Shown here: positions 1,920-38,439 of the stretch, in pieces
How the letters are laid out: every line of letters begins with the position of its first letter
Position numbering within the stretch: the first letter of the stretch is position 1
IMG/VR virus record: IMGVR_UViG_2778261268_000004
Length of the DNA: 39,727 nucleotides
DNA from: a virus
Taxonomy: Duplodnaviria; Heunggongvirae; Uroviricota; Caudoviricetes
Direction: 5' to 3' (one strand)
Position numbers and translations under genes: made by a program
The notes under the pieces: generated by a model
Told to the model about the DNA's origin: nothing
The model's database searches: none
Seen by the model: the letters and a program-made list of their open reading frames with translations, nothing else

Positions 1920-2566
1920 GCTGCACGCTCCCGCCCCTGGTTGTCTATTGGTGACACCGGAGCATTGCTGAATGCATTTGTTAATCCGCCAATATCCAAC
2001 GCGTATCCAGGGTGTAGTTGCACTGCCGGGTCTTCGCACTGATTACCCCAAACATCGAAGCCATGAGACGACTGGCGGGCGAACAGTTCAATGCGAGAAA
2101 CATCGCCTAACAATTGCACAAGTTTTTCACGAACGACATCTGGTTTTCTTGAATGCTCAAGCCGCGGTGCGGTAAATGACTGAACGATCCCTGCATTAAT
2201 GCGCGTAGGTAGTTTTCCCTTAACTGCAAACAGGCAATCTTCACTATTGGCGCGAGTCATGTGCCCCATACCCATAACCAGTTTATCTGGTTGTCGACTA
2301 CCACATTTTATCCACGTGAAGCCCTTCATGGTCATCAGACGGAATCCCCAGGCTTCAACAACTTTTAGTGCTTCGAGTGGTTGTGTTGGCACCCACCACA
2401 TGGCCAACAGACAGTTTTCACCGGCCAAATCCCACACAGGAAGGCGGCAGATATCCAGCACACTCATAACAGGATATTTAAAGCCGGCACCGCGATTACC
2501 ATCTGCGGCTTTGTCCCGGTATACCCAGGGTGGATCTGCATAGATTAGTGTGTATTTCTTAGTCAT
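1916..2566 (-). CDS. MT-A70 family N6-adenine DNA methyltransferase (orphan)
   Basis: DPPW catalytic motif ([14 protein letters not shown]); stop overlaps phosphatase start by 4 nt; no restriction partner nearby. Confidence 0.8.
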
Positions 2567-2810
2567 AAACCACCCCACAACATCCTATGCCGCTATAGTC
2601 GCCACGGCGAAGGCCGTTACCTTTTGTGATACATTGGTCCCTGCGAACCGCGATCCTTGCACGCTCAACATCACCAGAAGCAACATCCATACACTGAAGC
2701 CAAAGGTGGGCGGCAATGCGGAACTGCCCTTTTTTCTCTCTTTCAATCGCGCGTTTTTCGATCTCTATCGCCGCAGGAGTAACGGCAACAACCTTTGAAT
2801 GGCTGCGCAT
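2559..2810 (-). CDS. Hypothetical small protein (start uncertain)
   Basis: Open frame in operon context between AlpA-like gene and methyltransferase; weak AAGG before ATG 2810; no recognisable motif. Confidence 0.3.
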   Translation of the reverse strand: MRSHSKVVAVTPAAIEIEKRAIEREKKGQFRIAAHLWLQCMDVASGDVERARIAVRRDQCITKGNGLRRGDYSGIGCCGVVYD

Positions 2811-2967
2811 TGAAACCTTGTTCATGTGATATTTTTCAAGTCGGCTTAACTTTCTCACTTAATCCAACCCTCTCTGAAAATTAATGCCAGCAGATAAAGC
2901 CATGCTGAAACAGAGGCCAGGAATAAGTACCATCCTGACCATTTGCTCCAGTGCCTTAGCAGCGCAC

Positions 2968-3216
2968 TCATGCAGCGTTGCTCACAGGACGATATACACG
3001 TTGCTGAACAGGAGGCTTTTTACCCTGGAACTCTGCCGGGCTTGCTGCCTGACGTTCATCAAGCCAACGCTCAACTTCATCACGGTTCCATGCGCAGCGT
3101 TTATCGGTGATATACCAGCGTTTAGGAAATTCCCCTGCGCGCTCCATACGGTCGATAGTGCTCCATGACAGTGGCACCACCGCCAGGAGTTCCTTCTTAC
3201 CTAATGCACCTTTCAT
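2968..3216 (-). CDS. AlpA-family DNA-binding protein (probable excisionase/regulator)
   Basis: LSWSTIDRMERAGEFPKRWYITDKRCAWNRDEVERWL matches the AlpA/Vis-type HTH pattern; GAGAGG RBS. Confidence 0.7.
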   Translation of the reverse strand: MKGALGKKELLAVVPLSWSTIDRMERAGEFPKRWYITDKRCAWNRDEVERWLDERQAASPAEFQGKKPPVQQRVYRPVSNAA

Positions 3217-3265
3217 AAATACCTCTCTTGGTTGCAGTGCGGCGCGCGTGGCGCCGCGGTGGTGG

Positions 3266-4147
3266 TTACATAGATGTTTCGTTTAATTCTTCCCGACGAA
3301 CGCTGTAAACGTCGGTGGCTTTTGCCAGCAGTTCGTCATCATCTGAAAGTTTTTGTGCAATGTATTTGTAAGCCTTATCCAGTTCGGAGACAGTGATGTA
3401 ATTCATCGCTGCGCTGGTAAAGGCCATCAGCATTTCTTCTGGATCACGGCTATCCGCTTTACGCGTTTGCTCATCAGGCTTTTTCGCTGGTTTAGCGTTG
3501 ATCAGACTGTTCATTCCCGCAGCAGTGGTCGTTTGCGGAGTAATGTCTCGCTCAACGCGCGGTGCCGTTTCCTGTAATTCGTCAGGGGTGTAAACACCGA
3601 GAAGTACATCAGGAGCGTGCAGGCGAGCCCATCGTTTCGTGCAAAGATAGGCAAGCTGCTGGCGCGGATCCTGTTCCCACAATGGAGAGTTACGCACTCC
3701 GGCTTGCGCCATACTGATGGTAAGCTCACGGGGTTCTGCTTCTCCTTTAAGAACTGCTGACACAGTTACCGTCAGATTCGGTGATTTATCTGTTTTGCCG
3801 TTAACATTCGACCAGTCACCGCTCCAGCGATAATTCAGGCGTGTCGCTAGCAGGCTGGAAGAGGATACGACCGCGTTTACCAACTGTGCTTCGTAGCCTA
3901 ACGTTCCGTTTACCACATGCGTTTTCTGCGCCACGGCGAAAGGATTCATTCCCCACTGTGCCGCCTGCATGGTCACCGCCAGACAATCGGCAGGTTCGCC
4001 TTTAAGATGTTTCGGTACAGTCGCTTTGCTTTGTGACATCAACTCCGCGAAACGCACCAGTTGATTCATGCCCTCCGGGCTGAAGATTGCCGCAGCAGTA
4101 CCTACAGTTGCGCCTGGTTGTGATGTGATTGCGATATCATTGCTCAT
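3266..4147 (-). CDS. Single-strand annealing protein, Red-beta/Bet-like
   Basis: C-terminal LCTKRWARLHAPDVLLGVYTPDE...ERDITP resembles lambda Bet; paired with an upstream exonuclease. Confidence 0.8.
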   Translation of the reverse strand: MSNDIAITSQPGATVGTAAAIFSPEGMNQLVRFAELMSQSKATVPKHLKGEPADCLAVTMQAAQWGMNPFAVAQKTHVVNGTLGYEAQLVNAVVSSSSLLATRLNYRWSGDWSNVNGKTDKSPNLTVTVSAVLKGEAEPRELTISMAQAGVRNSPLWEQDPRQQLAYLCTKRWARLHAPDVLLGVYTPDELQETAPRVERDITPQTTTAAGMNSLINAKPAKKPDEQTRKADSRDPEEMLMAFTSAAMNYITVSELDKAYKYIAQKLSDDDELLAKATDVYSVRREELNETSM

Positions 4148-4965
4148 ACGTACATATCCTGTTTACGTGCCCAGTCAGGGCGTTTAATAATTTCCACTCC
4201 GCCCCACTCATCGTTGATGCGGCATTCGTGATAGGTATTCAGATCCCGGTGGAACAGAGCGTGCCCGGCATCGACATCCGGCGCATCCAGCTCGAACACG
4301 CGTACCGGATACCGACCACAATCAATGCTTTCGCTCACGGCAAGAAAGAAAAAACCATGCGGCTGACCAGTAACCCTCATTGCGCCTTCGCGGTACATTG
4401 CGTCCTGCACGTGGTAGCGGAATTCCTCGATGTGGCGTGCAAAACGGTCCATATCTGCAACCTTTTTCACGTCGACGATCACGTTGTGCTCGTTCAGCCA
4501 TTTGTCTGGACGAATTCGGCACAACTCACCCGTATCTTCATCGTTCCAGTACATTGATGCTTCGCAGTAACCAGGTGCTTCCAACATCCAGCGTGCCGCC
4601 GGGTGAGCCATTGCGCTAGCACGCATCAGCTCCAGTTTTCGCCACTGCTCTGCATCAAGTACCGAAATCCCCATATCCGCTACATCACGAATAAATGCCT
4701 CTTCGTCAGCTTTACCTTGTTTTGTCCGACGATCGAATTTCGGTGAAACGATGAAGCGTTTGTCAAACTCTCCAGGTTCCAGAAGCAGACAGTGCAGAGC
4801 AGTACCCATGTCCAGTGCAGACTTCTTCTCTTCGTCTTCCGGAGCAGCCTTCACCCATTTCAGAAGGGCAGGGTTCTTAGCCACCATATCTAGCTGCGAC
4901 TTACTCACGCCGTCACCGGCGTGGTAGTCCTCGTTGCTGATATCGAAATAAATTCCCGGATTCAT
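4144..4965 (-). CDS. PD-(D/E)XK 5'-3' exonuclease (RecE/exonuclease VIII-like)
   Basis: N-terminal GIYFDISNEDYH and D...E.K (DVKKV) nuclease signature; translationally coupled to the Bet-like gene. Confidence 0.75.
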   Translation of the reverse strand: MNPGIYFDISNEDYHAGDGVSKSQLDMVAKNPALLKWVKAAPEDEEKKSALDMGTALHCLLLEPGEFDKRFIVSPKFDRRTKQGKADEEAFIRDVADMGISVLDAEQWRKLELMRASAMAHPAARWMLEAPGYCEASMYWNDEDTGELCRIRPDKWLNEHNVIVDVKKVADMDRFARHIEEFRYHVQDAMYREGAMRVTGQPHGFFFLAVSESIDCGRYPVRVFELDAPDVDAGHALFHRDLNTYHECRINDEWGGVEIIKRPDWARKQDMYV

Positions 4966-5261
4966 GCCGCGTCCCTCTGCCCATCAATCTGATCAGCCAG
5001 ATCCCAGCGGGCGATAATTGCCATTGCCTCGCGCCGGTAGGCATCCATTAGTTCTTCGAACTCAGGGCTGTCTTTAGCGGCCTCTAGTACTTCCTGGCGA
5101 ACGCCTTTAACTGTTACAACGTCGAAAGTTGATGCCAGTTGATGAAGCCGGATACTCTCAATCAGTTCAACTTGTCGGTCATATAGCTGTTCTGACAGGC
5201 GGTAGTCCTTGTCGAATGCCAGCATGATTTTTTGAAGATTTTTCTGCTGATTAACGTTCAT
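4962..5261 (-). CDS. Hypothetical phage protein
   Basis: ATG 5261 preceded by GAGGTGG; overlaps neighbours in operon fashion. Confidence 0.5.
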   Translation of the reverse strand: MNVNQQKNLQKIMLAFDKDYRLSEQLYDRQVELIESIRLHQLASTFDVVTVKGVRQEVLEAAKDSPEFEELMDAYRREAMAIIARWDLADQIDGQRDAA

Positions 5262-5268
5262 ACCCACC

Positions 5269-6303
5269 TCAATATTTGATATACGCGTCCTGCACTTTGC
5301 CGCCAGCGATAGCCAACATTGCTTTCTGCGCGAATTCTTCGGGAATGCCTTGGGCTATCAGATCTGCGATTACTCTGCGGTTAACGGTACGGCGATGCTC
5401 TTTATCTGCAGCTCGGCGCGCTTCTTCGTCGGCGATACGCTTCTGTTCGTCAAGGCGGGCTTTTTCTGCCGCCTCTTGGCGTCGGCGTTCCTCGGCAACG
5501 GCTTCTTCTTTTTCGCGTCGTGCACGCTGCTCTGCTTCAATTCGCTGACGTTCTGCTACTTCAGCACGTGCTTTTTCTTCCACCGCCAGGCGTGCCGCAG
5601 CCTCAATTTCAGCTTTCGCTTTTTGTTCAGCTTCGAGCCTGGCCTGTTCAGCAGCTTCCCGGCGGATATTCTCTTCTCGCTCAATGCGCGCTTTTTCCTC
5701 CGCTTCTTTGCGAAGTCGCTCCAGCTCAGCGGCTTCATGCTCGCGTTTTTGAGCTACTGCGAGTGATTCTTCCAGTTTCTGGATGGTTGAATCCTTGGCT
5801 ACTCCAGCTTCTGCTGCGTACTCCTGCCAACTTTCATCAAGTGCTACTGATTTAGCCTCTTGAATTCGTTCCTGAATATCAGATGATGGCAAGTAGTTTC
5901 CGGAGAGATCGATCACGTCAGCTAGTGCTCGCAAATTTGTCAGGCGTTGTTGCAGTGCTTCAGTGCGTAATTTCTCAGCATTTTCCCACTCGGTGAGTGG
6001 GCGGCGTACTTCATCACGAAGCCGATCGCATTCGGTTACGAAGCGTCGTAACTCTGCTTCAACTACTTTCGGCTGTTCTTTCAGGCGTTTCAGATAATCA
6101 CGTCCTGGTTTTTCTACCGCTGTTTTACTTCTTGAAACCTTCGCAGCCAGAGATGCAATGCGCTTTCTGCCTTTGTCTGTGCTAATGTCAGGCACTTCAT
6201 TAACACCTTCACGGATCTGCTCGAGAAACTTTTCCAGCCCTTTTTCAACGTAAATTCTTGGTGCCATGTCTGGTGTGATTTCGATGATTGATAATTCACT
6301 CAT
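5269..6303 (-). CDS. Hypothetical protein with Ala/Glu/Arg-rich coiled-coil repeat region
   Basis: 344-aa ORF with GGAGTAGG RBS; central EAAEQARLEAEQKAKAE-type low-complexity tract. Confidence 0.6.
   Translation of the reverse strand: MSELSIIEITPDMAPRIYVEKGLEKFLEQIREGVNEVPDISTDKGRKRIASLAAKVSRSKTAVEKPGRDYLKRLKEQPKVVEAELRRFVTECDRLRDEVRRPLTEWENAEKLRTEALQQRLTNLRALADVIDLSGNYLPSSDIQERIQEAKSVALDESWQEYAAEAGVAKDSTIQKLEESLAVAQKREHEAAELERLRKEAEEKARIEREENIRREAAEQARLEAEQKAKAEIEAAARLAVEEKARAEVAERQRIEAEQRARREKEEAVAEERRRQEAAEKARLDEQKRIADEEARRAADKEHRRTVNRRVIADLIAQGIPEEFAQKAMLAIAGGKVQDAYIKY
5400..5800 (-). repeat. Low-complexity coding repeat (Ala/Glu/Arg/Lys heptad-like tract)
   Basis: Compositionally biased GC-rich tract within the 5269-6303 gene; produces spurious antisense ORFs. 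Confidence 0.6.
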
Positions 6304-14830: not shown

Positions 14831-14907
14831 TGGCGTGGCATGCAGGATTCGAACCTGCGACCAACCGCTTAGAAGGCGGTTGCTCTGTCCAACTGAGCTA
14901 ATGCCAC
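14831..14907 (-). tRNA. tRNA-Arg (anticodon UCU)
   Basis: Cloverleaf folds by hand: acceptor GTGGCAT/ATGCCAC, D-stem GCTC/GAGC, anticodon stem ACCGC/GCGGT with loop CTTCTAA, T-arm GCAGG-TTCGAAT-CCTGC, discriminator G, encoded CCA. Confidence 0.85.
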
Positions 14908-31746: not shown

Positions 31747-32379
31747 TTAATGCAGTTTATCTTTGCTTATAACCAGTAGTCTGTGGGTATGCACATCTTT
31801 ATCACTGCCCCAACAGAAATCAGCCCACTGGCTATAGAAATCATCCCATGATGTCATGAAGCTAAGAGGTCTATCTTCTTCAGAGCCATCTGAAACGTAT
31901 ACATTATATCCCGGGGTGTTTATAGCCCAAGAAATCATTCTTTCCCAGAATCTTCTCCCATCGATTGTTTGTTGCTCATCAGATACAACAATCGCATATT
32001 GCTCTAGGAAGAACTGAAAAAAAATCTGAGGCAAACCATGAACAGCACGGTCATGAATAACATTAGGCGTACGCCATACCATGATCTGCGTACATGTTCT
32101 TTTGGCTTCGACGATATCTTCCCGAAAGATTAACTTAACCGCATACACCGTTTCTGGAGTATCGCTGGTAGTAATCATTCTGTAATGATCGCCATTACAA
32201 GATTTTACAAGGCGATAACCATAAGGTGTTGTGAATCCCGGAAGAACGAAATCAACCACACCTTTCGCTAAGTAGCTTTCGGTGTGACTAGTGTTCTTCT
32301 CAGACATGTTCAGTTTTCTATCGAAATCTGCTTCTGGGATAATGTATGGCATCGCTTTTCTTGTTGTATTTGTTCTCAT
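31747..32379 (-). CDS. Unknown 210-aa accessory protein (moron)
   Basis: Strong GGGAGGA RBS 5 nt from ATG; own terminator (31721-31746); TTACC-N5-GGTAA operator upstream; no recognisable motif. Confidence 0.6.
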   Translation of the reverse strand: MRTNTTRKAMPYIIPEADFDRKLNMSEKNTSHTESYLAKGVVDFVLPGFTTPYGYRLVKSCNGDHYRMITTSDTPETVYAVKLIFREDIVEAKRTCTQIMVWRTPNVIHDRAVHGLPQIFFQFFLEQYAIVVSDEQQTIDGRRFWERMISWAINTPGYNVYVSDGSEEDRPLSFMTSWDDFYSQWADFCWGSDKDVHTHRLLVISKDKLH

Positions 32380-32438
32380 TTCGTCCTCCCATGTTTGGCT
32401 ACAGGACGCGTTTTGAAGGGAAGATTAAAAATGCTTTC

Positions 32439-32453
32439 TTACCCTTGAGGTAA
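32439..32453. promoter_or_regulatory. Operator-like palindrome TTACC-cttga-GGTAA upstream of the unknown 210-aa gene
   Basis: Perfect half-sites about 60 bp upstream of ATG 32379 (minus strand). Confidence 0.5.
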
Positions 32454-32525
32454 TAGTACGCTATTCACCCCCAGTCTGCAATCTGTACAGAATTATTTAA
32501 AGGCACATCCCTGTGCCGCCGCCCG

Positions 32526-33236
32526 TCAGAAGAACCCTGCCTTGTCGTTGATGTACTCCGCGTGCGTCTGGATATCACGCAGGCATTTGCTCACACCGAC
32601 GATGTAGCAGAACATGGTGGTCAGTTCCGCCGCCGCGCCCGATACGTCGTGCCCGTCTTCCTGTAACTGGTTTAGCAGATTCATCAGCAGTGAGCTCTCC
32701 GTCAGGCCGAGAACACCAGACGGCGAATGAATCAGGCTACGGTAGCCTGGCTTCAGTGGGGCACTGTAGGTTTTGTTCTCTATCTTCATTGCCTGCATCA
32801 CTGCTGATGCTGTGGCGTTGGCTACCTGGTCGGCAACCATCTTTATGCGTTCTTCCTGCGGGAGCGAGTTTTTAATGTAACTTCCGGTGCGGCGGATCTG
32901 AGGAAGAACCTCACCTGTAACCCATTTACGAAAGCGGTAGGGGATAGTGCCTGGTGTCACCGCATCGCGGCAGCGGAGGATCAGTGTGTAGAGGCCTGAC
33001 TCGGAGATGATGTTGATCTCTTTTACTCGGCTATCAAAAATTGCACGATGTTCATGCCCTATGTTGAACATAGACCTTTCATCATCATCCAGTTTTTCAA
33101 GTGATTGGGTGACGTTTTGGATACGCAGCGCACTACAAACGTCTTGGGCTACAAACCATGGTTGGCCATCGATAATGATGGAACGGATAGGGTTAACAGA
33201 TTCAAATTTGAAGATGGCAGTTTGAGCATTAGCCAT
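32526..33236 (-). CDS. Bro-N domain antirepressor-like protein
   Basis: N-terminal FKFESVNPIRSIIIDGQPWFVAQDVCSAL...ESGLYTLILR Bro-N pattern; GGAGAT RBS. Confidence 0.75.
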   Translation of the reverse strand: MANAQTAIFKFESVNPIRSIIIDGQPWFVAQDVCSALRIQNVTQSLEKLDDDERSMFNIGHEHRAIFDSRVKEINIISESGLYTLILRCRDAVTPGTIPYRFRKWVTGEVLPQIRRTGSYIKNSLPQEERIKMVADQVANATASAVMQAMKIENKTYSAPLKPGYRSLIHSPSGVLGLTESSLLMNLLNQLQEDGHDVSGAAAELTTMFCYIVGVSKCLRDIQTHAEYINDKAGFF

Positions 33237-33253
33237 GGTGGTTATCTCCACTT

Positions 33254-33268
33254 AGTGATTTTAATCAC
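33254..33268. promoter_or_regulatory. Palindrome GTGATT-TTA-ATCAC immediately upstream of the Bro-N gene RBS
   Basis: Inverted repeat located -15 to -35 from ATG 33236 on the minus strand. Confidence 0.35.
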
Positions 33269-33391
33269 CACCGCAACGCCAATTACTGGTGGTGAACTGG
33301 ACAAGGTTGGCGTACCGGCCTAAGTGGTACCGGCGTCCTTTCGGACCCCTGCCCAGCCCACCATAATTCGGATATGGCTGTGCTTAACGCA

Positions 33392-33414
33392 TAAAAAAAC
33401 CACGTCTGGCGTGG
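33392..33414 (-). terminator. Rho-independent terminator inside the antirepressor intergenic region
   Basis: CCACG-ccaga-CGTGG followed by TTTTTTT on the minus strand. Confidence 0.65.
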
Positions 33415-33505
33415 TATGCGCCACTTAGTAACTCGGGACGCCAATCCCGGCACTGGATTTTGCCAGTGCCCGATTACTATGGCACAAGAGGAGTGCGATG
33501 TAAAT

Positions 33506-33520
33506 TTACCGCAAAGGTAA
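33506..33520. promoter_or_regulatory. Operator-like palindrome TTACC-gcaaa-GGTAA
   Basis: Perfect half-sites in the antirepressor intergenic region. Confidence 0.45.
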
Positions 33521-33551
33521 ATATAAGCACTCATCTTGGTAATTTCAAATC

Positions 33552-33809
33552 TTATCTGGTTTGTTTTCGTAATTGTTCGGCACAATAGTCGAGATGTGTT
33601 TGCAGATCCCGCATAGACATCTGTGAGCTGGTGACGTAGTTAATCAGTGCAGTCAGTTCGGCAAGTGGGCCATCGACATTAAATCCATCCTTATCGAGAT
33701 CCCGGAGTAATTTCATCAAGTGCGATCCCTCCACCAGTGATCTGACGCCTCCCGGCGTGTGAATCCTTTCGGTAAATCCGTCTTCCAGTGGATAGTGATA
33801 CTGCTGCAT
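33552..33809 (-). CDS. Small protein paralogous to the C-terminal domain of the Bro-N protein
   Basis: RSLVEGSHLMKLLRDLDKDGFNVDGPLAELTALINYVTSSQMSMRDLQTHLDYC aligns with the C-terminus of the 32526-33236 product; GGAGAAG RBS. Confidence 0.55.
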   Translation of the reverse strand: MQQYHYPLEDGFTERIHTPGGVRSLVEGSHLMKLLRDLDKDGFNVDGPLAELTALINYVTSSQMSMRDLQTHLDYCAEQLRKQTR

Positions 33810-33885
33810 CTTATCTTCTCCATGCAATAACTGTATATTTATACAGTATCAAATAATTTGTTTGCTATCCAGCACGTTTTGTAAA

Positions 33886-33900: not shown

Positions 33901-34004
33901 TATCTATTCGTATTTACAGTCTTTCTATCCATATGTGGTTTTTCAGGTAATAGAATAACCAGATATGCGGCGCAACGGGTGCTGCGACTATCTGGAGATT
34001 TAAC

Positions 34005-36296
34005 ATGACGGTCTCAACCGAAGTTGACCACAACGAATACACAGGCAATGGCGTTACGACATCGTTTCCGTATACCTTCCGCATTTTCAAAAAATCCGAC
34101 CTGGTTGTTCAGGTGGTTGACCTTGATGAAAATATCGCTGTGCTGGCTCTTGATACTGATTACACTGTCACTGGGGCTGGTGGATACAACGGTGGCAATG
34201 TAATTTTGTCGAAGGCATTGGCCAGCGGTCATCATATTTCTATATCTCGAGAGCTACCAGTTACGCAGGAAACCGATCTGCGCAATCAAGGTAAGTTCTT
34301 TGCTGAAGTGCATGAGGATGCTTTTGATAAGCTCACTATGCTTATACAGCGGGCATATAGCGTTTTTCGCTTAGCTCTGCGTAAACCATCAAGCATTGCG
34401 AACTGGTACGACGCGCTGAACAACTGCATCCGCAATTTGCGCGATCCCTGCAACCCGCAGGATGCCGCCACCAAAAATTATGTCGATACGCTCGCAAACA
34501 GCAACTTAATCCGCACGCTGCGAGTTCCAGAAGTTATTATATCCTTGCCTGATGCTGAAACCAGAGCTAATAAGATGGTTGCATTTGATAGTATCGGCAA
34601 TCCTTTAGTGGTTTTGCCTCCTTCAGGTTCTGCTTCTGATGTTCTTATTCAGTTGGCTGCCTCAGATGGAGCAAAATTATCGTTAAGTCAAGTAGCCACC
34701 GCATATGGCCTTGATTTCTCGTTAGGCGGTGTATGGCGGGAGGGGGCGTTATCTAATGTTGATAACTGGTGGTGGTATAATAATAAAATCTACACTGGTG
34801 GTAGTGGCACTCTTCCGTCATCTCCTGCTTTGCCATGGTACGAAGTGACGGTAGCAGATTATATTTCTGTTGCTCAATTTTTCCCCATTACTGGTGATCC
34901 AGCGGCAGATAACTCAGCTAGCTTTAATGCTGCTGCAGCAGTTGCTTTATCGGCAGGAAAGAGGCTGTTTGTCCCTGCAGGAACTTACTATGTTAAGTCA
35001 CCAGTTGATTTAACAATAGGCACTGTTGACCTATTCGGGGATGGCGTTGAGAAGTCATTCATTATTGCGGGGAGTGGGTTCACTGGAGAGGCAGTTGTCA
35101 ACATGTACTACGAAACTGACTCTATAAGACGTAGCACATCTATCTATCACGTTACAGTTGATGGGAACAACATCGCCAACTATCCTTGCCGAATTCAATA
35201 TGTTCACCTAGGAAGAACCCATAATTGTCGTTTCATCAATGGCGCGGTGGCGAACTTATATACTATAAACGACTGGCTTAATACCTATGATTGCTGTTCT
35301 TTTGTTCCTGCGCCAAATCGCGGAGTTCACCTTGCTGGGGCTAACAACCGCGTAACGTTCAATAACTGTGGATTTGCATCAAATAAGGTCGGTGAATATG
35401 CCTTTTATGCTTCTGGTACTTCCCCTATTGAAGGTTTAAGCTTAATTGGATGTGACCTTGAGTTCGGCATTGGGCATGGCATGTACTTAAATACCCGAGT
35501 GACCAATATTGTTGGCGGGTACTATGGCGAAGCGATACAAGGCGATATTTTTACGGTTCCAGATGGAGTAGTAAAAATAAGCGGTGTAAATGCTTTTGTA
35601 GGATATTACAATGAGGGAGGAAGGTTTGTTGTTCTTGACAATGATGCTGTAGTTAAGGTTGATAGTTGCTGGATTGCAGATCAGGGCAACTTTAAACTTT
35701 CATTACTTGCATCAAGCGCTAACAACATGGCTCATGCTGTATTTACTAAATGTTATATTGGTGCAACTGTGTCTGGCCCACAAGTTATGGAAGGAGATTG
35801 TTTAGGCAAGATCAATATGAGGACGTTTGCAGAAAGCAGGGCAATCCTTTATACAATGAACAATACTGGTAATACAGTAACCAGAAGCAGATACAACTCA
35901 ATAGGAGCAAAAATAACCATTAATACCGTAACGAGCCCTAGTTCTAACAAGCTATCACTTAATACTAAGATAAAAGACAGAGGGTGGAAGGTTAACGACC
36001 GGGTGTACTTAATTGTTACTTATGAGAGTAATGTTGATATAAATATTTATTTAAGCAGTTCGATATATGCTGCATCGGATGCAACGCTATTTGGAACTTT
36101 ACCATCAACAAATGGTTCTTTATCTACGTGTTATATTGCTAATAATATTATTCCGGAAAATACATCTGAGATATTCGAGTTTTATGTAAATGGCGCTGGT
36201 GTTGGCGATTACTTTGCTATTCAGGATGTTACTCTTACAGACAGGTCATTCACTTTCAGTGGAACAACTATGACCACTTTTGCTAAGGCTGAATAA
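34005..36296 (+). CDS. Tail fibre/tailspike: T7 gp17-like N-terminal anchor plus beta-helix-like C-terminal domain (probable depolymerase)
   Basis: N-terminal pattern ending NKNYVDTL as in T7-type fibres; C-terminal repetitive Asn/Gly-rich region suggestive of a right-handed beta-helix. Confidence 0.85.
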   Translation: MTVSTEVDHNEYTGNGVTTSFPYTFRIFKKSDLVVQVVDLDENIAVLALDTDYTVTGAGGYNGGNVILSKALASGHHISISRELPVTQETDLRNQGKFFAEVHEDAFDKLTMLIQRAYSVFRLALRKPSSIANWYDALNNCIRNLRDPCNPQDAATKNYVDTLANSNLIRTLRVPEVIISLPDAETRANKMVAFDSIGNPLVVLPPSGSASDVLIQLAASDGAKLSLSQVATAYGLDFSLGGVWREGALSNVDNWWWYNNKIYTGGSGTLPSSPALPWYEVTVADYISVAQFFPITGDPAADNSASFNAAAAVALSAGKRLFVPAGTYYVKSPVDLTIGTVDLFGDGVEKSFIIAGSGFTGEAVVNMYYETDSIRRSTSIYHVTVDGNNIANYPCRIQYVHLGRTHNCRFINGAVANLYTINDWLNTYDCCSFVPAPNRGVHLAGANNRVTFNNCGFASNKVGEYAFYASGTSPIEGLSLIGCDLEFGIGHGMYLNTRVTNIVGGYYGEAIQGDIFTVPDGVVKISGVNAFVGYYNEGGRFVVLDNDAVVKVDSCWIADQGNFKLSLLASSANNMAHAVFTKCYIGATVSGPQVMEGDCLGKINMRTFAESRAILYTMNNTGNTVTRSRYNSIGAKITINTVTSPSSNKLSLNTKIKDRGWKVNDRVYLIVTYESNVDINIYLSSSIYAASDATLFGTLPSTNGSLSTCYIANNIIPENTSEIFEFYVNGAGVGDYFAIQDVTLTDRSFTFSGTTMTTFAKAE

Positions 36297-36302
36297 TTAA
36301 CA

Positions 36303-36328
36303 GAAAAGGTGGATCACTCCACCTTTTC
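36303..36328. terminator. Bidirectional terminator after the tailspike
   Basis: AAAAGGTGGA-tcac-TCCACCTTTT, A-run and T-run on both sides. Confidence 0.75.
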
Positions 36329-36475
36329 ATCAAGCCAGTCCGCCCACCACTGCATCATTTCTCTGCGCTTATCGAGATACTGAGCATGGTTGTAAATCCC
36401 GCGCATAGATCCTCCGTTAGCATGTGTCAGTTGCACCGCATTGACATCCTCCACGCCCTGAAGTACTGGGTTTTA
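36314..36475 (-). pseudogene. 3'-terminal remnant of a second P4-type integrase gene
   Basis: Open frame PVLQGVEDVNAVQLTHANGGSMRGIYNHAQYLDKRREMMQWWADWLDEKVE aligns with the C-terminus of the intact integrase (KALAHEQKGVRAVYNKAEYARQRAYMLQQWADMID) but is divergent; no upstream gene body. Confidence 0.6.
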
Positions 36476-36530
36476 CGGCGCACTGGATAAATTTACGATC
36501 TCATCCGTAAAATACAAAAAAACCACTTTA

Positions 36531-36580
36531 TTACCTTTATGGTGATTTATGTAAGGTGTTTTATTTAACCATATATGGTT
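36531..36580. promoter_or_regulatory. Operator-like imperfect palindrome TTACC-tttat-GGTGA plus palindrome AACCATATATGGTT upstream of the lysis cassette
   Basis: Same half-site variant as 7303-7317; AACCATATATGGTT at 36567-36580. Confidence 0.4.
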
Positions 36581-36641
36581 TATTATGTATGATGAACTCA
36601 CCAACTAAGGGGGACTTTATGCATATTAAACGGTGGTCACT

Positions 36642-37046
36642 ATGTCAACCACGCTGACAACGGACTCACTTAATCAGGGGCTTAGCCTTGGCGCGCTGGC
36701 TTCAGTTGTTGTCGGTGTCCCTCCCGAGGTGGCGTTAGGTGCGCTGGCCGGTGCGGTAATTTTTGTTACCTCGGCTGTAGAGTATCCGATCAAGCGTCGG
36801 TTATTACTTGCGTTTCTCAGCTACCTATGCGGAGTTCTCTTCTATAAAGCAACAGCAACACTGCTTATCGGAATAGCGAGCTGGATACCGAAAATCACAC
36901 CTGACTCATTCGAGAATGGGGTTGCGTTCTCTGCCGGGGCATTCGTGTCAGCTATCGTCGCTGTCCGCATTGGCATATGGCTGTATCACCGTTCTGAAAA
37001 TCCGCGCGACTTGATCCCGGGGAGAAAAGACGATGGTAACGCATGA
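36642..37046 (+). CDS. Membrane protein, putative holin/antiholin
   Basis: Several hydrophobic segments; GGTGG RBS; first gene of the lysis cassette. Confidence 0.5.
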   Translation: MSTTLTTDSLNQGLSLGALASVVVGVPPEVALGALAGAVIFVTSAVEYPIKRRLLLAFLSYLCGVLFYKATATLLIGIASWIPKITPDSFENGVAFSAGAFVSAIVAVRIGIWLYHRSENPRDLIPGRKDDGNA

Positions 37047-37341
37047 GCTTTTTTTACTTATCACCAATGCAGTTATTTGTACTGGCATAGCAATTCGCGT
37101 TGTTACATTCCAGCGTAACGGATCTCAACACCGAAGATGGGGTGGGTGGATTGCTTATTTCCTGATTGTTGCTGCTGCCAGTATTCCAGTTCGTGTCGCT
37201 TATGCAATCTGGTTACATACGCCAATGGCTGTGGATTTATCTGAGGTCATTATCAACGCTGTCATGCTTGCTGCGGTTATTAAAACTCGCGGTAACGTCG
37301 TTCAGATTTTCAAAATAACGAGGTCTAAACATGGAGATTAA
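37033..37341 (+). CDS. Putative holin (3 predicted TM segments)
   Basis: 102-aa hydrophobic protein directly upstream of the endolysin. Confidence 0.5.
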
Positions 37342-37960
37342 ACAATTCCAGCGAGCTGCTGGTATCAGCGAGGCGCTGGCCGCACGCTGGTTCTTGCATA
37401 TAACTTCTGCGATGAAAGAGTTTGGTATCAGTAAACCCGAAGATCAGGCAATGTTTATTGCTCAGGTCGGGCATGAGTCTGGTGGCCTCACCCGGTTACA
37501 GGAAAATTTCAATTACAGCGTCACCGGACTGGCTAACTTTGTTCGGGCTGGGCGTCTCACCCAGGGACAGGCTAATGCACTGGGGCGCCGTGCTGGTGAA
37601 CCACCATTGCCACTTGAGCGCCAGCGCGCGATCGCAAATCTGGTATACAGCAAACGCATGGGTAACAATGCTCCCGGCGATGGCTGGAATTACCGTGGGC
37701 GCGGGCTTATCCAGATTACCGGCTTGAATAACTATCGTGACTGCGGAAACGGTCTGAAAGTTGACCTGCTGGAGAATCCTGAACTGCTGGCACAGGACGA
37801 ATACGCGGCTCGTAGCGCGGCCTGGTTCTTCTCCAGTAAAGGCTGCATGAAGTATACCGGAGATATTGTACGTGTAACTCTGATTATCAATGGTGGCAGG
37901 AACGGCATCGACGACCGGCGCGCGCGGTACATTACTGCCAGTAAGGTGCTGGTGGTATGA
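37331..37960 (+). CDS. Endolysin, glycoside hydrolase family 19-like
   Basis: AQVGHESGG ... GRGLIQITG ... NY motif series characteristic of GH19-type phage lysins. Confidence 0.85.
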
Positions 37961-38439
37961 TCTGGGCATTCGTCAAAGCGTACTGGAAACAGTTACTTAT
38001 CGTGGCGATGCTTGCTGCTCTGGTAATCGGCGGCAGGGTTGCCTGGAATGTACACGGCAGCCACCAGTACGATGCCGGGTATGCGCAGGCAAAGGCAGAT
38101 CAGAAACAGGCTGATGATAAAGCTCGTCAGCATGACGAACAGGAAAAAGCGACCAATGAACGTGAAGCGCAGCAGAGGATCGACCAGGCGCGCAATGATG
38201 CTCTTGATGCTGCCGCTCGCGCTGGCCGGTTGCAGCAACAGCTCGTTGCCATCCGTGAGCAGCTCAGGCAGTATAACGCCACTATCGGCACTGGGGCGTC
38301 AGCCGCAGACACCGGAGTTTTGCTTGCCGACGTGCTCAGCAAATCTCTCGAGCGAAACCGACAACTGGCAGAGTACGCTGACCGGGCCGCCGAAGCCGGA
38401 CGAGTCTGTGAAAAGCAGTACGATTCGCTGACACGGTGA
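37957..38439 (+). CDS. i-spanin (Rz-like)
   Basis: N-terminal TM ([14 protein letters not shown]) followed by charged coiled-coil; after the endolysin. Confidence 0.65.
38156..38431 (+). CDS. o-spanin (Rz1-like lipoprotein) embedded in +1 frame of the i-spanin gene
   Basis: Lipobox LALAGC after a basic n-region, Pro-rich mature part; AGGAAAAAG RBS. Confidence 0.55.
   Translation: MNVKRSRGSTRRAMMLLMLPLALAGCSNSSLPSVSSSGSITPLSALGRQPQTPEFCLPTCSANLSSETDNWQSTLTGPPKPDESVKSSTIR

Follow-up and report, generated by a model that had tools for sequence, protein, structure and literature searches.

The gene at positions 34005–36296 (+ strand) of the 39,727-nucleotide stretch of viral DNA analysed here (the window) encodes a tailspike whose two halves appeared to be of different ancestry, which raised the questions of where each half came from and which glycan on the host surface the protein recognises. 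The open reading frame was exactly where the first-pass annotation had placed it and specifies 763 aa from an ATG start; GGAG, a Shine–Dalgarno sequence, lies 7 nt 5′ of this codon (33994–33997, + strand), a strong bidirectional intrinsic terminator hairpin with an 11-bp stem follows the gene (36303–36328), and an identical sequence is deposited as WP_244565267.1. The gene has the virion genes on one side and the lysis cassette on the other, which is the placement found in Uetakevirus genomes, in an E. coli prophage integrated next to yfgI whose backbone is 97–98% identical to phiV10-type phages over ∼25 kb. Its product is the receptor-binding tailspike, and the sole one, of this phiV10/epsilon15-like temperate podovirus (Uetakevirus). 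The GC content steps down along the locus, being 50.5% for the backbone, 46.7% for the N-terminal anchor and 41.1% for the receptor module.

Residues 1–219 (34005–34661, + strand) form a genus-specific tail anchor, as judged from identity to Uetakevirus spikes, PDB sequence matches and fold matches. Over residues 1–225 the amino acid sequence is 76% identical to the phiV10 spike and 75% identical to the epsilon15-type spike, as befits a Uetakevirus anchor; past residue 225 no similarity to either was detectable, and many PHROG spike families align with residues 1–225 only. The ∼205 N-terminal residues of the phiV10 spike have been used as a genus marker (PMC10408124), and the phage-binding domain of epsilon15 gp20 (residues 1–247) is described as having two knobs, a shaft and a flexible hinge (bioRxiv 10.64898/2026.07.31.742079). 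Matches among PDB sequences were to residues 1–155 of the Dpo31/Carin-1 fibre and residues 135–223 of the KN1 depolymerase. No match to PF09008, the P22 head-binding domain, was found in the window tailspike by Pfam search at E≤1.

It had been proposed that the first ∼160 residues follow the anchor pattern of T7 gp17. In an AF2 monomer model of residues 1–240 (mean pLDDT 64.9, with ∼80 for the beta-sandwich) the anchor comprised a T7 gp17-type beta-sandwich (9–82), a long helix (99–124) and a second knob plus shaft (∼135–215). When this model was searched against the PDB with Foldseek, the top 23 matches were all N-terminal tail-attachment domains of podovirus fibres or spikes; the matches to T7 gp17 were 7ey9_a (E 3.4e-5), 7boz_a (7.4e-5), 9jz0_b (3.1e-4) and 7ey7_a (1.7e-3), with TM to target of 0.49–0.58. 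By model and fold search, then, the anchor has the gp17 N-terminal domain fold seen in T7 tail complexes. The score of Pfam PF03906 on residues 11–168 (profile positions 10–156/157, E 1.2e-3) was 18.9 bits against a gathering threshold of 25.2 bits, an hhalign comparison of the N-terminal alignment with T7 gp17 was not significant (E 0.065), and a profile search of PDB sequences with the N-terminal profile did not retrieve T7 gp17. The idea that homology to T7 gp17 is proven by sequence was consequently dropped, the support coming from the fold search. Thus, the proposal held as a clear match of fold accompanied by a weak match of sequence, but the conserved genus anchor extends to ∼220 residues and not to 160.

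Beyond the anchor lies a connector (residues 220–285, GAKLSLSQVATAYGLDFSLGGVW..NWWWYNNKIYTG..; 34662–34859, + strand) that is common to P22-like and PF18668-anchored spikes, in which the same connector leads into unrelated beta-helices. Homology to the phiV10 backbone stops at 34660, identity of phiV10-type phages to the tailspike gene exceeds 90% in its first 119 nt only, and the first 48 nt of the connector (34662–34709) are just ∼78% identical to the P22-like copies. A domain junction near residue 160 had been suggested for comparison across relatives; it exists there as a minor mode (9/62), with breakpoints at residues 220–229 in 35 of the 62. For this gene it was rejected, as identity to phiV10/epsilon15-type spikes reaches residue 225 and the spike of a sibling prophage, described below, departs from the window spike at about residue 267–272, so that the junction falls at ∼220–285.

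Residues ∼286–590 (34860–35774, + strand) fold as a right-handed parallel beta-helix that includes an N-terminal cap helix (304–317), in agreement with the beta-helix-like domain foreseen by the first-pass annotation. The pectin-lyase-like family PF12708 matched residues 293–378 above threshold (33.9 bits, cutoff 27), and the fold was obtained in a second AF2 monomer model of moderate confidence (mean pLDDT 66.9). A C-terminal beta-sandwich domain follows (residues ∼614–745; 35844–36239, + strand), delimited by AF2 strands and by Foldseek, in which it matched carbohydrate-binding modules of the CBM29 family (E ∼5e-5, TM to target 0.53). The description of this part of the protein as Asn/Gly/Val-rich and repetitive was half right: compared with other virion proteins, the post-anchor part is moderately enriched (N 8.3% vs 4.7%, G 9.7 vs 8.2, V 8.5 vs 6.5), but gene-wide searches found no tandem or direct repeats in the tailspike gene, and the word repetitive applies to the rungs of the beta-helix only.

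The fold neighbours of the receptor module comprise hydrolases, lyases, epimerases and non-catalytic adhesins. The RefSeq name ‘GH28-related’ suggested membership of GH28, but this had no Pfam support, the GH28 catalytic-domain model giving no match to the tailspike. Conservation instead pointed to D484 and E486 (motif C-D-L-E) and E509 (motif YYGE), encoded within 35454–35531 (+ strand), as residues that may act in catalysis: all three are at least 90% conserved in a family alignment of 16 sequences with an overall identity of ∼30%. A profile search to enlarge the family added no members to the total of 33 clusters, and because the family is this small such conservation-based candidates are weak ones. 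Allele comparison also revealed clustered substitutions that only the window allele carries, at residues 572, 573, 575 and 582 (35718–35750, + strand).

The closest counterparts of the module were found in P22-like prophages, which bear it between the immI (arc/ant) genes and intS at 97.9–98.3% identity over window positions 34663–36436; within the gene, nt 659–2292 are ∼98% identical to their tailspikes. Three such spikes, from UMNF18 (WP_000129900.1), P13-6 (WP_096937520.1) and VG48B2 (WP_289782411.1), share the connector, beta-helix, C-terminal domain and terminator with the window at ∼98% nucleotide identity, but they begin with a ∼120-residue PF09008 head-binding domain where the window has its ∼220-residue T7-type anchor, and a complete intS gene comes after them where the window has a remnant. 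Strain VG48B2 hosts both prophage types. Its Uetakevirus prophage is the sibling referred to above: the flanks are 99.5–100% identical to the window per 400-nt bin, mismatches numbering 3 over about 6 kb when the crossover zone is excluded, and the difference between the two is confined to a cassette at 34805–36312. The sibling's alternative cassette is likewise found in P22-like prophages (98.8% over 99% of its length), where this connector and the intS end again form its borders. In the ETEC1716 chimera, gene nt 706–2329 are 100% identical to the VG48B2 P22-like spike, and the sequence from nt 2309 on is 100% identical to the VG48B2 Uetakevirus sibling.

These comparisons delimited both crossovers. 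On the left, near-identity among the window, its Uetakevirus sibling prophage and the P22-like donors spans 34710–34804 (+ strand); on the right, 21 nt (36313–36333) are common to donor and resident prophage, and the high-identity tract shared with the donors stops at 36333. The right-hand homology arm is a remnant of a gene native to P22-like prophages, intS: translation and identity to intS 3′ ends identified 36314–36472 (− strand) as what is left of a P4-type IntS integrase gene, namely its last ∼52 codons. This remnant is annotated as an incomplete integrase in ETEC1716 and VG48B2, and its identity to the intS 3′ ends of ∼2450 genomes is 95–97%, as far as window position 36436. The remnant is identical to that of the sibling, whose sole mismatch in 36313–36700 is at 36572, but only ∼95% identical to those of the P22-like donors, and it is therefore older than this swap; with the donor tract ending at 36333, the notion that the integrase fragment was brought in with the receptor module was abandoned. 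A lineage-specific spacer (36437–36563) separates the end of integrase homology from the phiV10-type backbone, which resumes at 36564, and fills the slot of the O-antigen acetyltransferase gene in phiV10 and PAS61. The horizontal exchange of the C-terminal module that had been suspected is supported by the 97–98% identity of the backbone to the phiV10 type, the ∼98% identity of the module to P22-like prophages, the drop in GC and the cassette difference from the sibling, and it can be retraced from the sequences almost base by base.

A two-arm homologous exchange is symmetric in principle and both prophage types are co-resident in VG48B2, as would also suit an origin of the module and connector in the Uetakevirus lineage with later donation to P22-like prophages. 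We regard this reverse direction as very improbable, since the intS piece is a truncated, non-functional remnant in Uetakevirus but the 3′ end of an intact neighbour gene in the P22-like prophages, and since connector and remnant are absent from phiV10-type phages. In addition, the 64-member protein cluster is dominated by P22-anchored copies, with the chimera present there on 2 contigs, and in 2 of 5426 complete genomes. It is also improbable that the prophage is defective and the gene a relic that has lost its function in infection. Some related P22-like prophages have indeed decayed (truncated int in UMNF18, an internal stop in int in P13-6), but in the window the reading frame is intact with a good Shine–Dalgarno sequence and terminator, the lysis cassette is intact, and the backbone is 97–98% identical, at 83–91% coverage, to infectious isolates such as phiV10, HEMP4, PAS61 and ZX5.

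As to the receptor, 5426 genomes were searched directly with the O141 wzx-wzy region to assign O141 status. The O141 wzx/wzy cluster was present in 5 of the 7 genomes with the module, compared to 14/5426 overall (hypergeometric P = 1e-12, a value that ignores clonal relatedness). The serotypes of ETEC1716, ETEC4090, ETEC4073 and ETEC1706 are absent from the main text of PMC11267873, and there is no O141 subtype in the list of Pas et al. (2023; PMC10408124). This strong association indirectly supports the earlier suggestion that the C-terminal module sets host specificity, and the receptor target is probably the O141 O-antigen. An unlikely alternative is that the spike targets another surface glycan, such as a K-type capsule or an O-antigen variant common in porcine strains, and that the link to O141 reflects clonal inheritance of the prophage. 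Two carriers would fit it, UMNF18 being O147 with two copies of the module and ET245 lacking the O141 cluster; several carriers are porcine ETEC or edema-disease strains, and many structural neighbours of the module are capsule depolymerases. However, the module is found in prophages of two unrelated types and at no fewer than three integration sites (yfgI, bio/ybhB and argW-yfdC), the O141 hosts came from pigs, a human and a farm environment, and the Uetake- and Lederbergvirus spikes so far characterised are O-antigen specific (PMC10408124).

Cleavage of the glycan by the beta-helix is, by analogy with relatives, the most likely activity. We see little chance that it binds or modifies the glycan, for instance by deacetylation, without cutting the backbone: the acidic residues of the C-D-x-E and YYGE motifs are kept across relatives of ∼30% identity, and the characterised relatives in both parent genera are endoglycosidases, epsilon15 gp20 being an endorhamnosidase and the P22, HK620 and Sf6 tailspikes endoglycosidases.

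Taken as a whole, we put at about 0.8 the probability that this is a Uetakevirus tailspike which kept its own anchor, acquired a P22-like receptor module by a two-arm exchange, and most likely binds and cleaves O141 O-antigen. By analogy with epsilon15 gp20, the protein would be a homotrimer present as six trimers per tail. Residues 1–219 would dock it to the tail through the T7 gp17-type beta-sandwich and helix, the second knob and a flexible hinge, with residues 220–285 as connector to the beta-helix (∼286–590) and the beta-sandwich (∼614–745). The beta-helix would most likely bind the O141 O-antigen and most likely cleave it, with D484, E486 and E509 as candidate residues, allowing the virion to work its way down to the outer membrane. 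The receptor module would have come from a P22-like (Lederbergvirus-type) prophage through two homologous crossovers, one within 34710–34804 in the conserved connector and the other within 36313–36333 in the truncated intS 3′ remnant already carried by the Uetakevirus lineage. The cassette swapped out would have encoded a different receptor domain and a Wzy-like O-antigen polymerase.

A broader and more tentative possibility is that the connector and the intS remnant form a standing ‘docking site’, at which receptor cassettes, each a beta-helix with or without an O-antigen-converting gene, are exchanged whole and repeatedly, through ordinary homologous recombination, with co-resident P22-like prophages, which belong to an unrelated genus. 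Both alleles seen sit between identical arms and are tied to O141 hosts, and might represent solutions for native and for phage-converted O141; the epsilon15/epsilon34 pair in Salmonella offers a parallel for native versus phage-converted antigen.

O-antigen-specific phages change host mainly by exchanging the receptor domains of their tailspikes, and the engineering of phages and tailocins builds on such exchange. The locus is a clean example of this well-known modularity and leaves the current understanding of how tailspikes work unchanged; as a natural case it is unusually clean in that sequenced genomes contain the recombinant, its isogenic sibling and a prophage of the donor type, and the crossovers could be confined to 95 nt (left) and 21 nt (right). 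It also nominates a candidate receptor-binding domain, which could serve for typing or biocontrol, for O141, a serogroup that matters in edema disease and post-weaning diarrhoea of pigs and is without an assigned spike subtype.

Among known systems, the window spike resembles phiV10 gp25 (YP_512279.1, O157-specific) and epsilon15 gp20 in the location of its gene, flanked by the virion-protein/moron region and the lysis cassette, and in overall plan (anchor, hinge, beta-helix, beta-sandwich). It lacks the SGNH ‘petal’ esterase domain of epsilon15, and no O-antigen-modifying gene follows it as one does in phiV10, PAS61 and E15. It is like the T7 gp17 N-terminal domain (PF03906; 7boz, 7ey9) in predicted fold, extreme N-terminal position and full-profile Pfam alignment, but its sequence similarity is below the family threshold, and the Carin-1/Dpo31 fibre (44% identity) and the PhiM1 and Kp9 fibres are closer solved relatives. 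Solved beta-helix depolymerases (CBA120 TSP2/TSP4, HK620 TSP, the Klebsiella K2 spikes and Geobacillus virus E2 ORF18) are 10–20% identical to it. The general framework is that of Pas et al. (2023) for E. coli phage genera, in which members of a genus share a conserved anchor and receptor domains move between genera, tracking O-serogroup, with Uetake- and Lederbergviruses as exemplars (PMC10408124). For prophages of these two genera that survey found no conserved flanking DNA motifs around the receptor domain (PMC10408124), whereas here the conserved connector and the intS remnant provide flanking homology between the two.

The first-pass annotation had placed a tailspike gene on the + strand at 34005..36296, and the open reading frame lies exactly there, with an ATG start 7 nt downstream of a ribosome-binding site (GGAG), a product of 763 aa and a bidirectional terminator hairpin with an 11-bp stem (36303-36328) 3' of the reading frame. 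The protein has an exact match in public databases, WP_244565267.1, automatically named 'glycosyl hydrolase family 28-related protein', and no published study of it was found in the literature. The prophage adjoins the host genes yfgI and yfgH and between 9000 and 33900 shows 97-98% identity (83-91% coverage) to phiV10, HEMP4, PAS61, ZX5 and the O157 typing phages 9 and 10. These are all temperate podoviruses assigned to Uetakevirus, the genus typified by epsilon15. Like the related O157 typing phages, the prophage encodes a tRNA-Arg (anticodon TCT; 14831-14907, minus strand). The tailspike gene is flanked on one side by large virion-protein genes together with a small moron region on the minus strand, and on the other by a holin-endolysin-spanin cassette. 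The minus-strand block between virion genes and spike (31747-33827), encoding proteins of 210 aa, 241 aa (BRO-N-type) and 91 aa, looks like a variable moron region; phiV10 has a related block that is only ~82% identical. The tailspike slot holds a single spike gene, as does the corresponding slot of phiV10. The window lacks the O-antigen-modifying gene that phiV10, PAS61 and an epsilon15-type phage carry in the slot after the spike.

Over residues 1-225, identity to the phiV10 spike was 76% and to an epsilon15-type gp20 75%, with no similarity to either protein past residue 225. Twenty PHROG spike families were matched, many of them only over residues 1-225 or 1-~165. The N-terminus had been assigned to the T7 gp17 type, a claim that was weak by sequence: PF03906 aligned over its full length within the anchor (residues 1-219), yet its score of 18.9 bits fell short of the 25.2-bit cutoff, hhalign against T7 gp17 gave an E value of 0.065, and an N-terminal profile search of PDB sequences retrieved the Dpo31/Carin-1 fibre (E 6e-33), the KN1 depolymerase (residues 136-229) and PhiM1 gp47 but not T7 gp17. 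The predicted fold, however, supported it. The AF2 model of residues 1-240 contained a beta-sandwich (9-82, pLDDT ~80) and a long helix (99-124), with lower confidence beyond; each of its top 23 Foldseek matches was the N-terminal anchor of a podovirus fibre from a tail complex, with four T7 gp17 entries among them (E 3e-5 to 2e-3). The phage-binding domain of epsilon15 gp20 (residues 1-247) has recently been described as two knobs with a joining shaft and a flexible hinge to the beta-helix (bioRxiv 10.64898/2026.07.31.742079), a layout consistent with the ~220-residue anchor seen here. The database relatives of the anchor were mostly partial proteins of 160-400 aa ending near the anchor/receptor junction, which suggests that draft assemblies often break within these spike genes, probably because of modules repeated in co-resident prophages.

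The C-terminal module (residues 220-763) had been expected to form a beta-helix, and this was borne out. PF12708 matched above threshold, the core of the AF2 model had a pLDDT of 75-88, and its top Foldseek matches were only beta-helix spikes, namely CBA120 TSP4 (E 5e-12), Klebsiella K2 spikes and HK620 TSP, so that nothing pointed to a fold other than a beta-helix; the last domain gave CBM29-like matches. The module had also been described as Asn/Gly/Val-rich and repetitive: Asn was indeed enriched, Gly and Val more mildly, but no sequence repeats were found in it. The acidic residues D484 and E486 (C-D-L-E) and E509 (YYGE) are kept across ~30%-identical relatives and are candidates for the active site. 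The receptor-module family is small (33 clusters), and the connector (residues ~216-297/330) shares 45-67% protein identity with spikes in which it is combined with different beta-helices and anchors (PF09008 and PF18668). Against the other aligned copies, the receptor module of the window carries 11 private nucleotide changes, nine of them nonsynonymous; four private amino-acid changes fall within 11 residues (572, 573, 575 and 582; 35718-35750), a cluster that could mark either a surface loop subject to diversifying selection or a short conversion tract.

P22-like prophages in UMNF18, P13-6, VG48B2, ST12468 and ET245 have 'phage tailspike protein' genes that match nucleotides 659-2292 of the gene at ~98% identity. 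These genes encode a head-binding domain (PF09008) at the N-terminus and lie downstream of arc/ant immunity genes and upstream of intS. The full-length chimera of Uetakevirus anchor and P22-like receptor module was present in two of 5426 complete genomes, ETEC1716 and ETEC4090. Homology to the phiV10-type backbone ends at 34660 and starts again at 36564, and homology to the P22-like prophages covers 34663-36436, extending past the stop codon and terminator into the last intS codons on the opposite strand. GC content drops from 50.5% (backbone) through 46.7% (anchor) to 41.1% (receptor module, with GC3 at 33.6%). The ETEC1716 spike is 99.4% identical to that of the window; identity falls to 71-90% in the BRO-N moron gene and the holin/endolysin genes (32900-33700 and 36900-38100) and is ~100% everywhere else, and these patches are further mosaicism within the same prophage type.

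A sibling Uetakevirus prophage in VG48B2, integrated at the same yfgI site, was nearly identical to the window from at least as far upstream as 31982 to ~34804, and again from 36313 to the window end (99.5-100% per 400-nt bin; three mismatches in ~6 kb outside the crossover zone and two more, at 34738 and 34796, within it). The intervening segment of the sibling holds another receptor domain and a Wzy_C-like membrane-protein gene absent from the window, followed by the same integrase remnant. This cassette (2024-5813 of the sibling locus, corresponding to 34805-36312) encodes a 793-aa spike and a multi-pass membrane protein of 446 aa (a 447-codon reading frame, stop included) with a below-threshold match to Wzy_C (O-antigen polymerase/ligase), likely a seroconversion gene. 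The near-identical flanks around a different insert indicate that the window represents a natural allelic replacement of a ~1.5-kb cassette. The ETEC1716 copy was 100% identical to the P22-like spike of VG48B2 over gene nucleotides 706-2329 and to the VG48B2 sibling from nucleotide 2309 on, which places the crossovers within 34710-34804 (connector) and 36313-36333 (terminator/integrase stop). Both parental configurations are found together in one sequenced genome. P22-like prophages of 2018-01-1CC, ETEC4073 and ETEC1706 also contain the sibling cassette (98.8% identity, 99% of its length), again bordered by that connector start and that intS end. The Uetakevirus lineage has therefore exchanged cassettes with P22-like prophages on at least two occasions by way of these two arms.

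The remnant in the downstream arm is the truncated 3' end of a P4-type IntS gene (~52 codons; 36314-36472, minus strand), with the tailspike terminator on one side and the holin genes on the other, and is distinct from the prophage's own integrase gene. It is identical to that of the sibling and ~95% identical to those of the donors, and its junction with the holin genes was found in only three of 5426 complete E. coli genomes. The remnant is an older scar left by an initial, illegitimate acquisition of DNA from P22-like genomes; as spike and int are true neighbours in such genomes, it fixes the original direction of transfer.

Prophage spike domains are known to track host serogroup (Pas et al. 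2023, PMC10408124). The O141 O-antigen cluster, which encodes dTDP-rhamnose and GDP-mannose pathways and four glycosyltransferases, was located in P13-6, and its wzx-wzy segment was used as query against the 5426 complete genomes. The cluster was present in 14 of these, including five of the seven carriers of the receptor module (ETEC1716, ETEC4090, VG48B2, ST12468 and P13-6; hypergeometric P = 1e-12, clonality ignored), and all carriers of the sibling cassette were O141 (P = 5e-14, clonality likewise ignored). Since the receptor module occurs in two prophage types and at three or more integration sites, we predict with moderate confidence that the receptor is the O141 O-antigen. The carriers outside O141 were UMNF18 (O147) and ET245. 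UMNF18 has two P22-like prophages, each with a receptor-module copy (AEJ55443.1 and AEJ57574.1), copies at odds with the prediction; the prophage at the bio/ybhB site has lost its integrase gene almost entirely.

The protein is a modular tailspike in which a genus-specific anchor of T7 gp17-type fold is followed by a hinge and connector, a beta-helix receptor-binding domain that is probably a depolymerase, and a beta-sandwich, the receptor part having been installed through a homologous double crossover with a P22-like prophage. Such exchanges have been described for Uetake- and Lederbergviruses in an earlier survey, according to which neither genus has conserved motifs flanking the exchanged domain (PMC10408124). 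Beyond this known picture, the present case offers a near-base-pair reconstruction in which recombinant, sibling and donor type have all been sequenced, the use of the connector and an integrase remnant as flanking homology, and a candidate O141-specific receptor domain.
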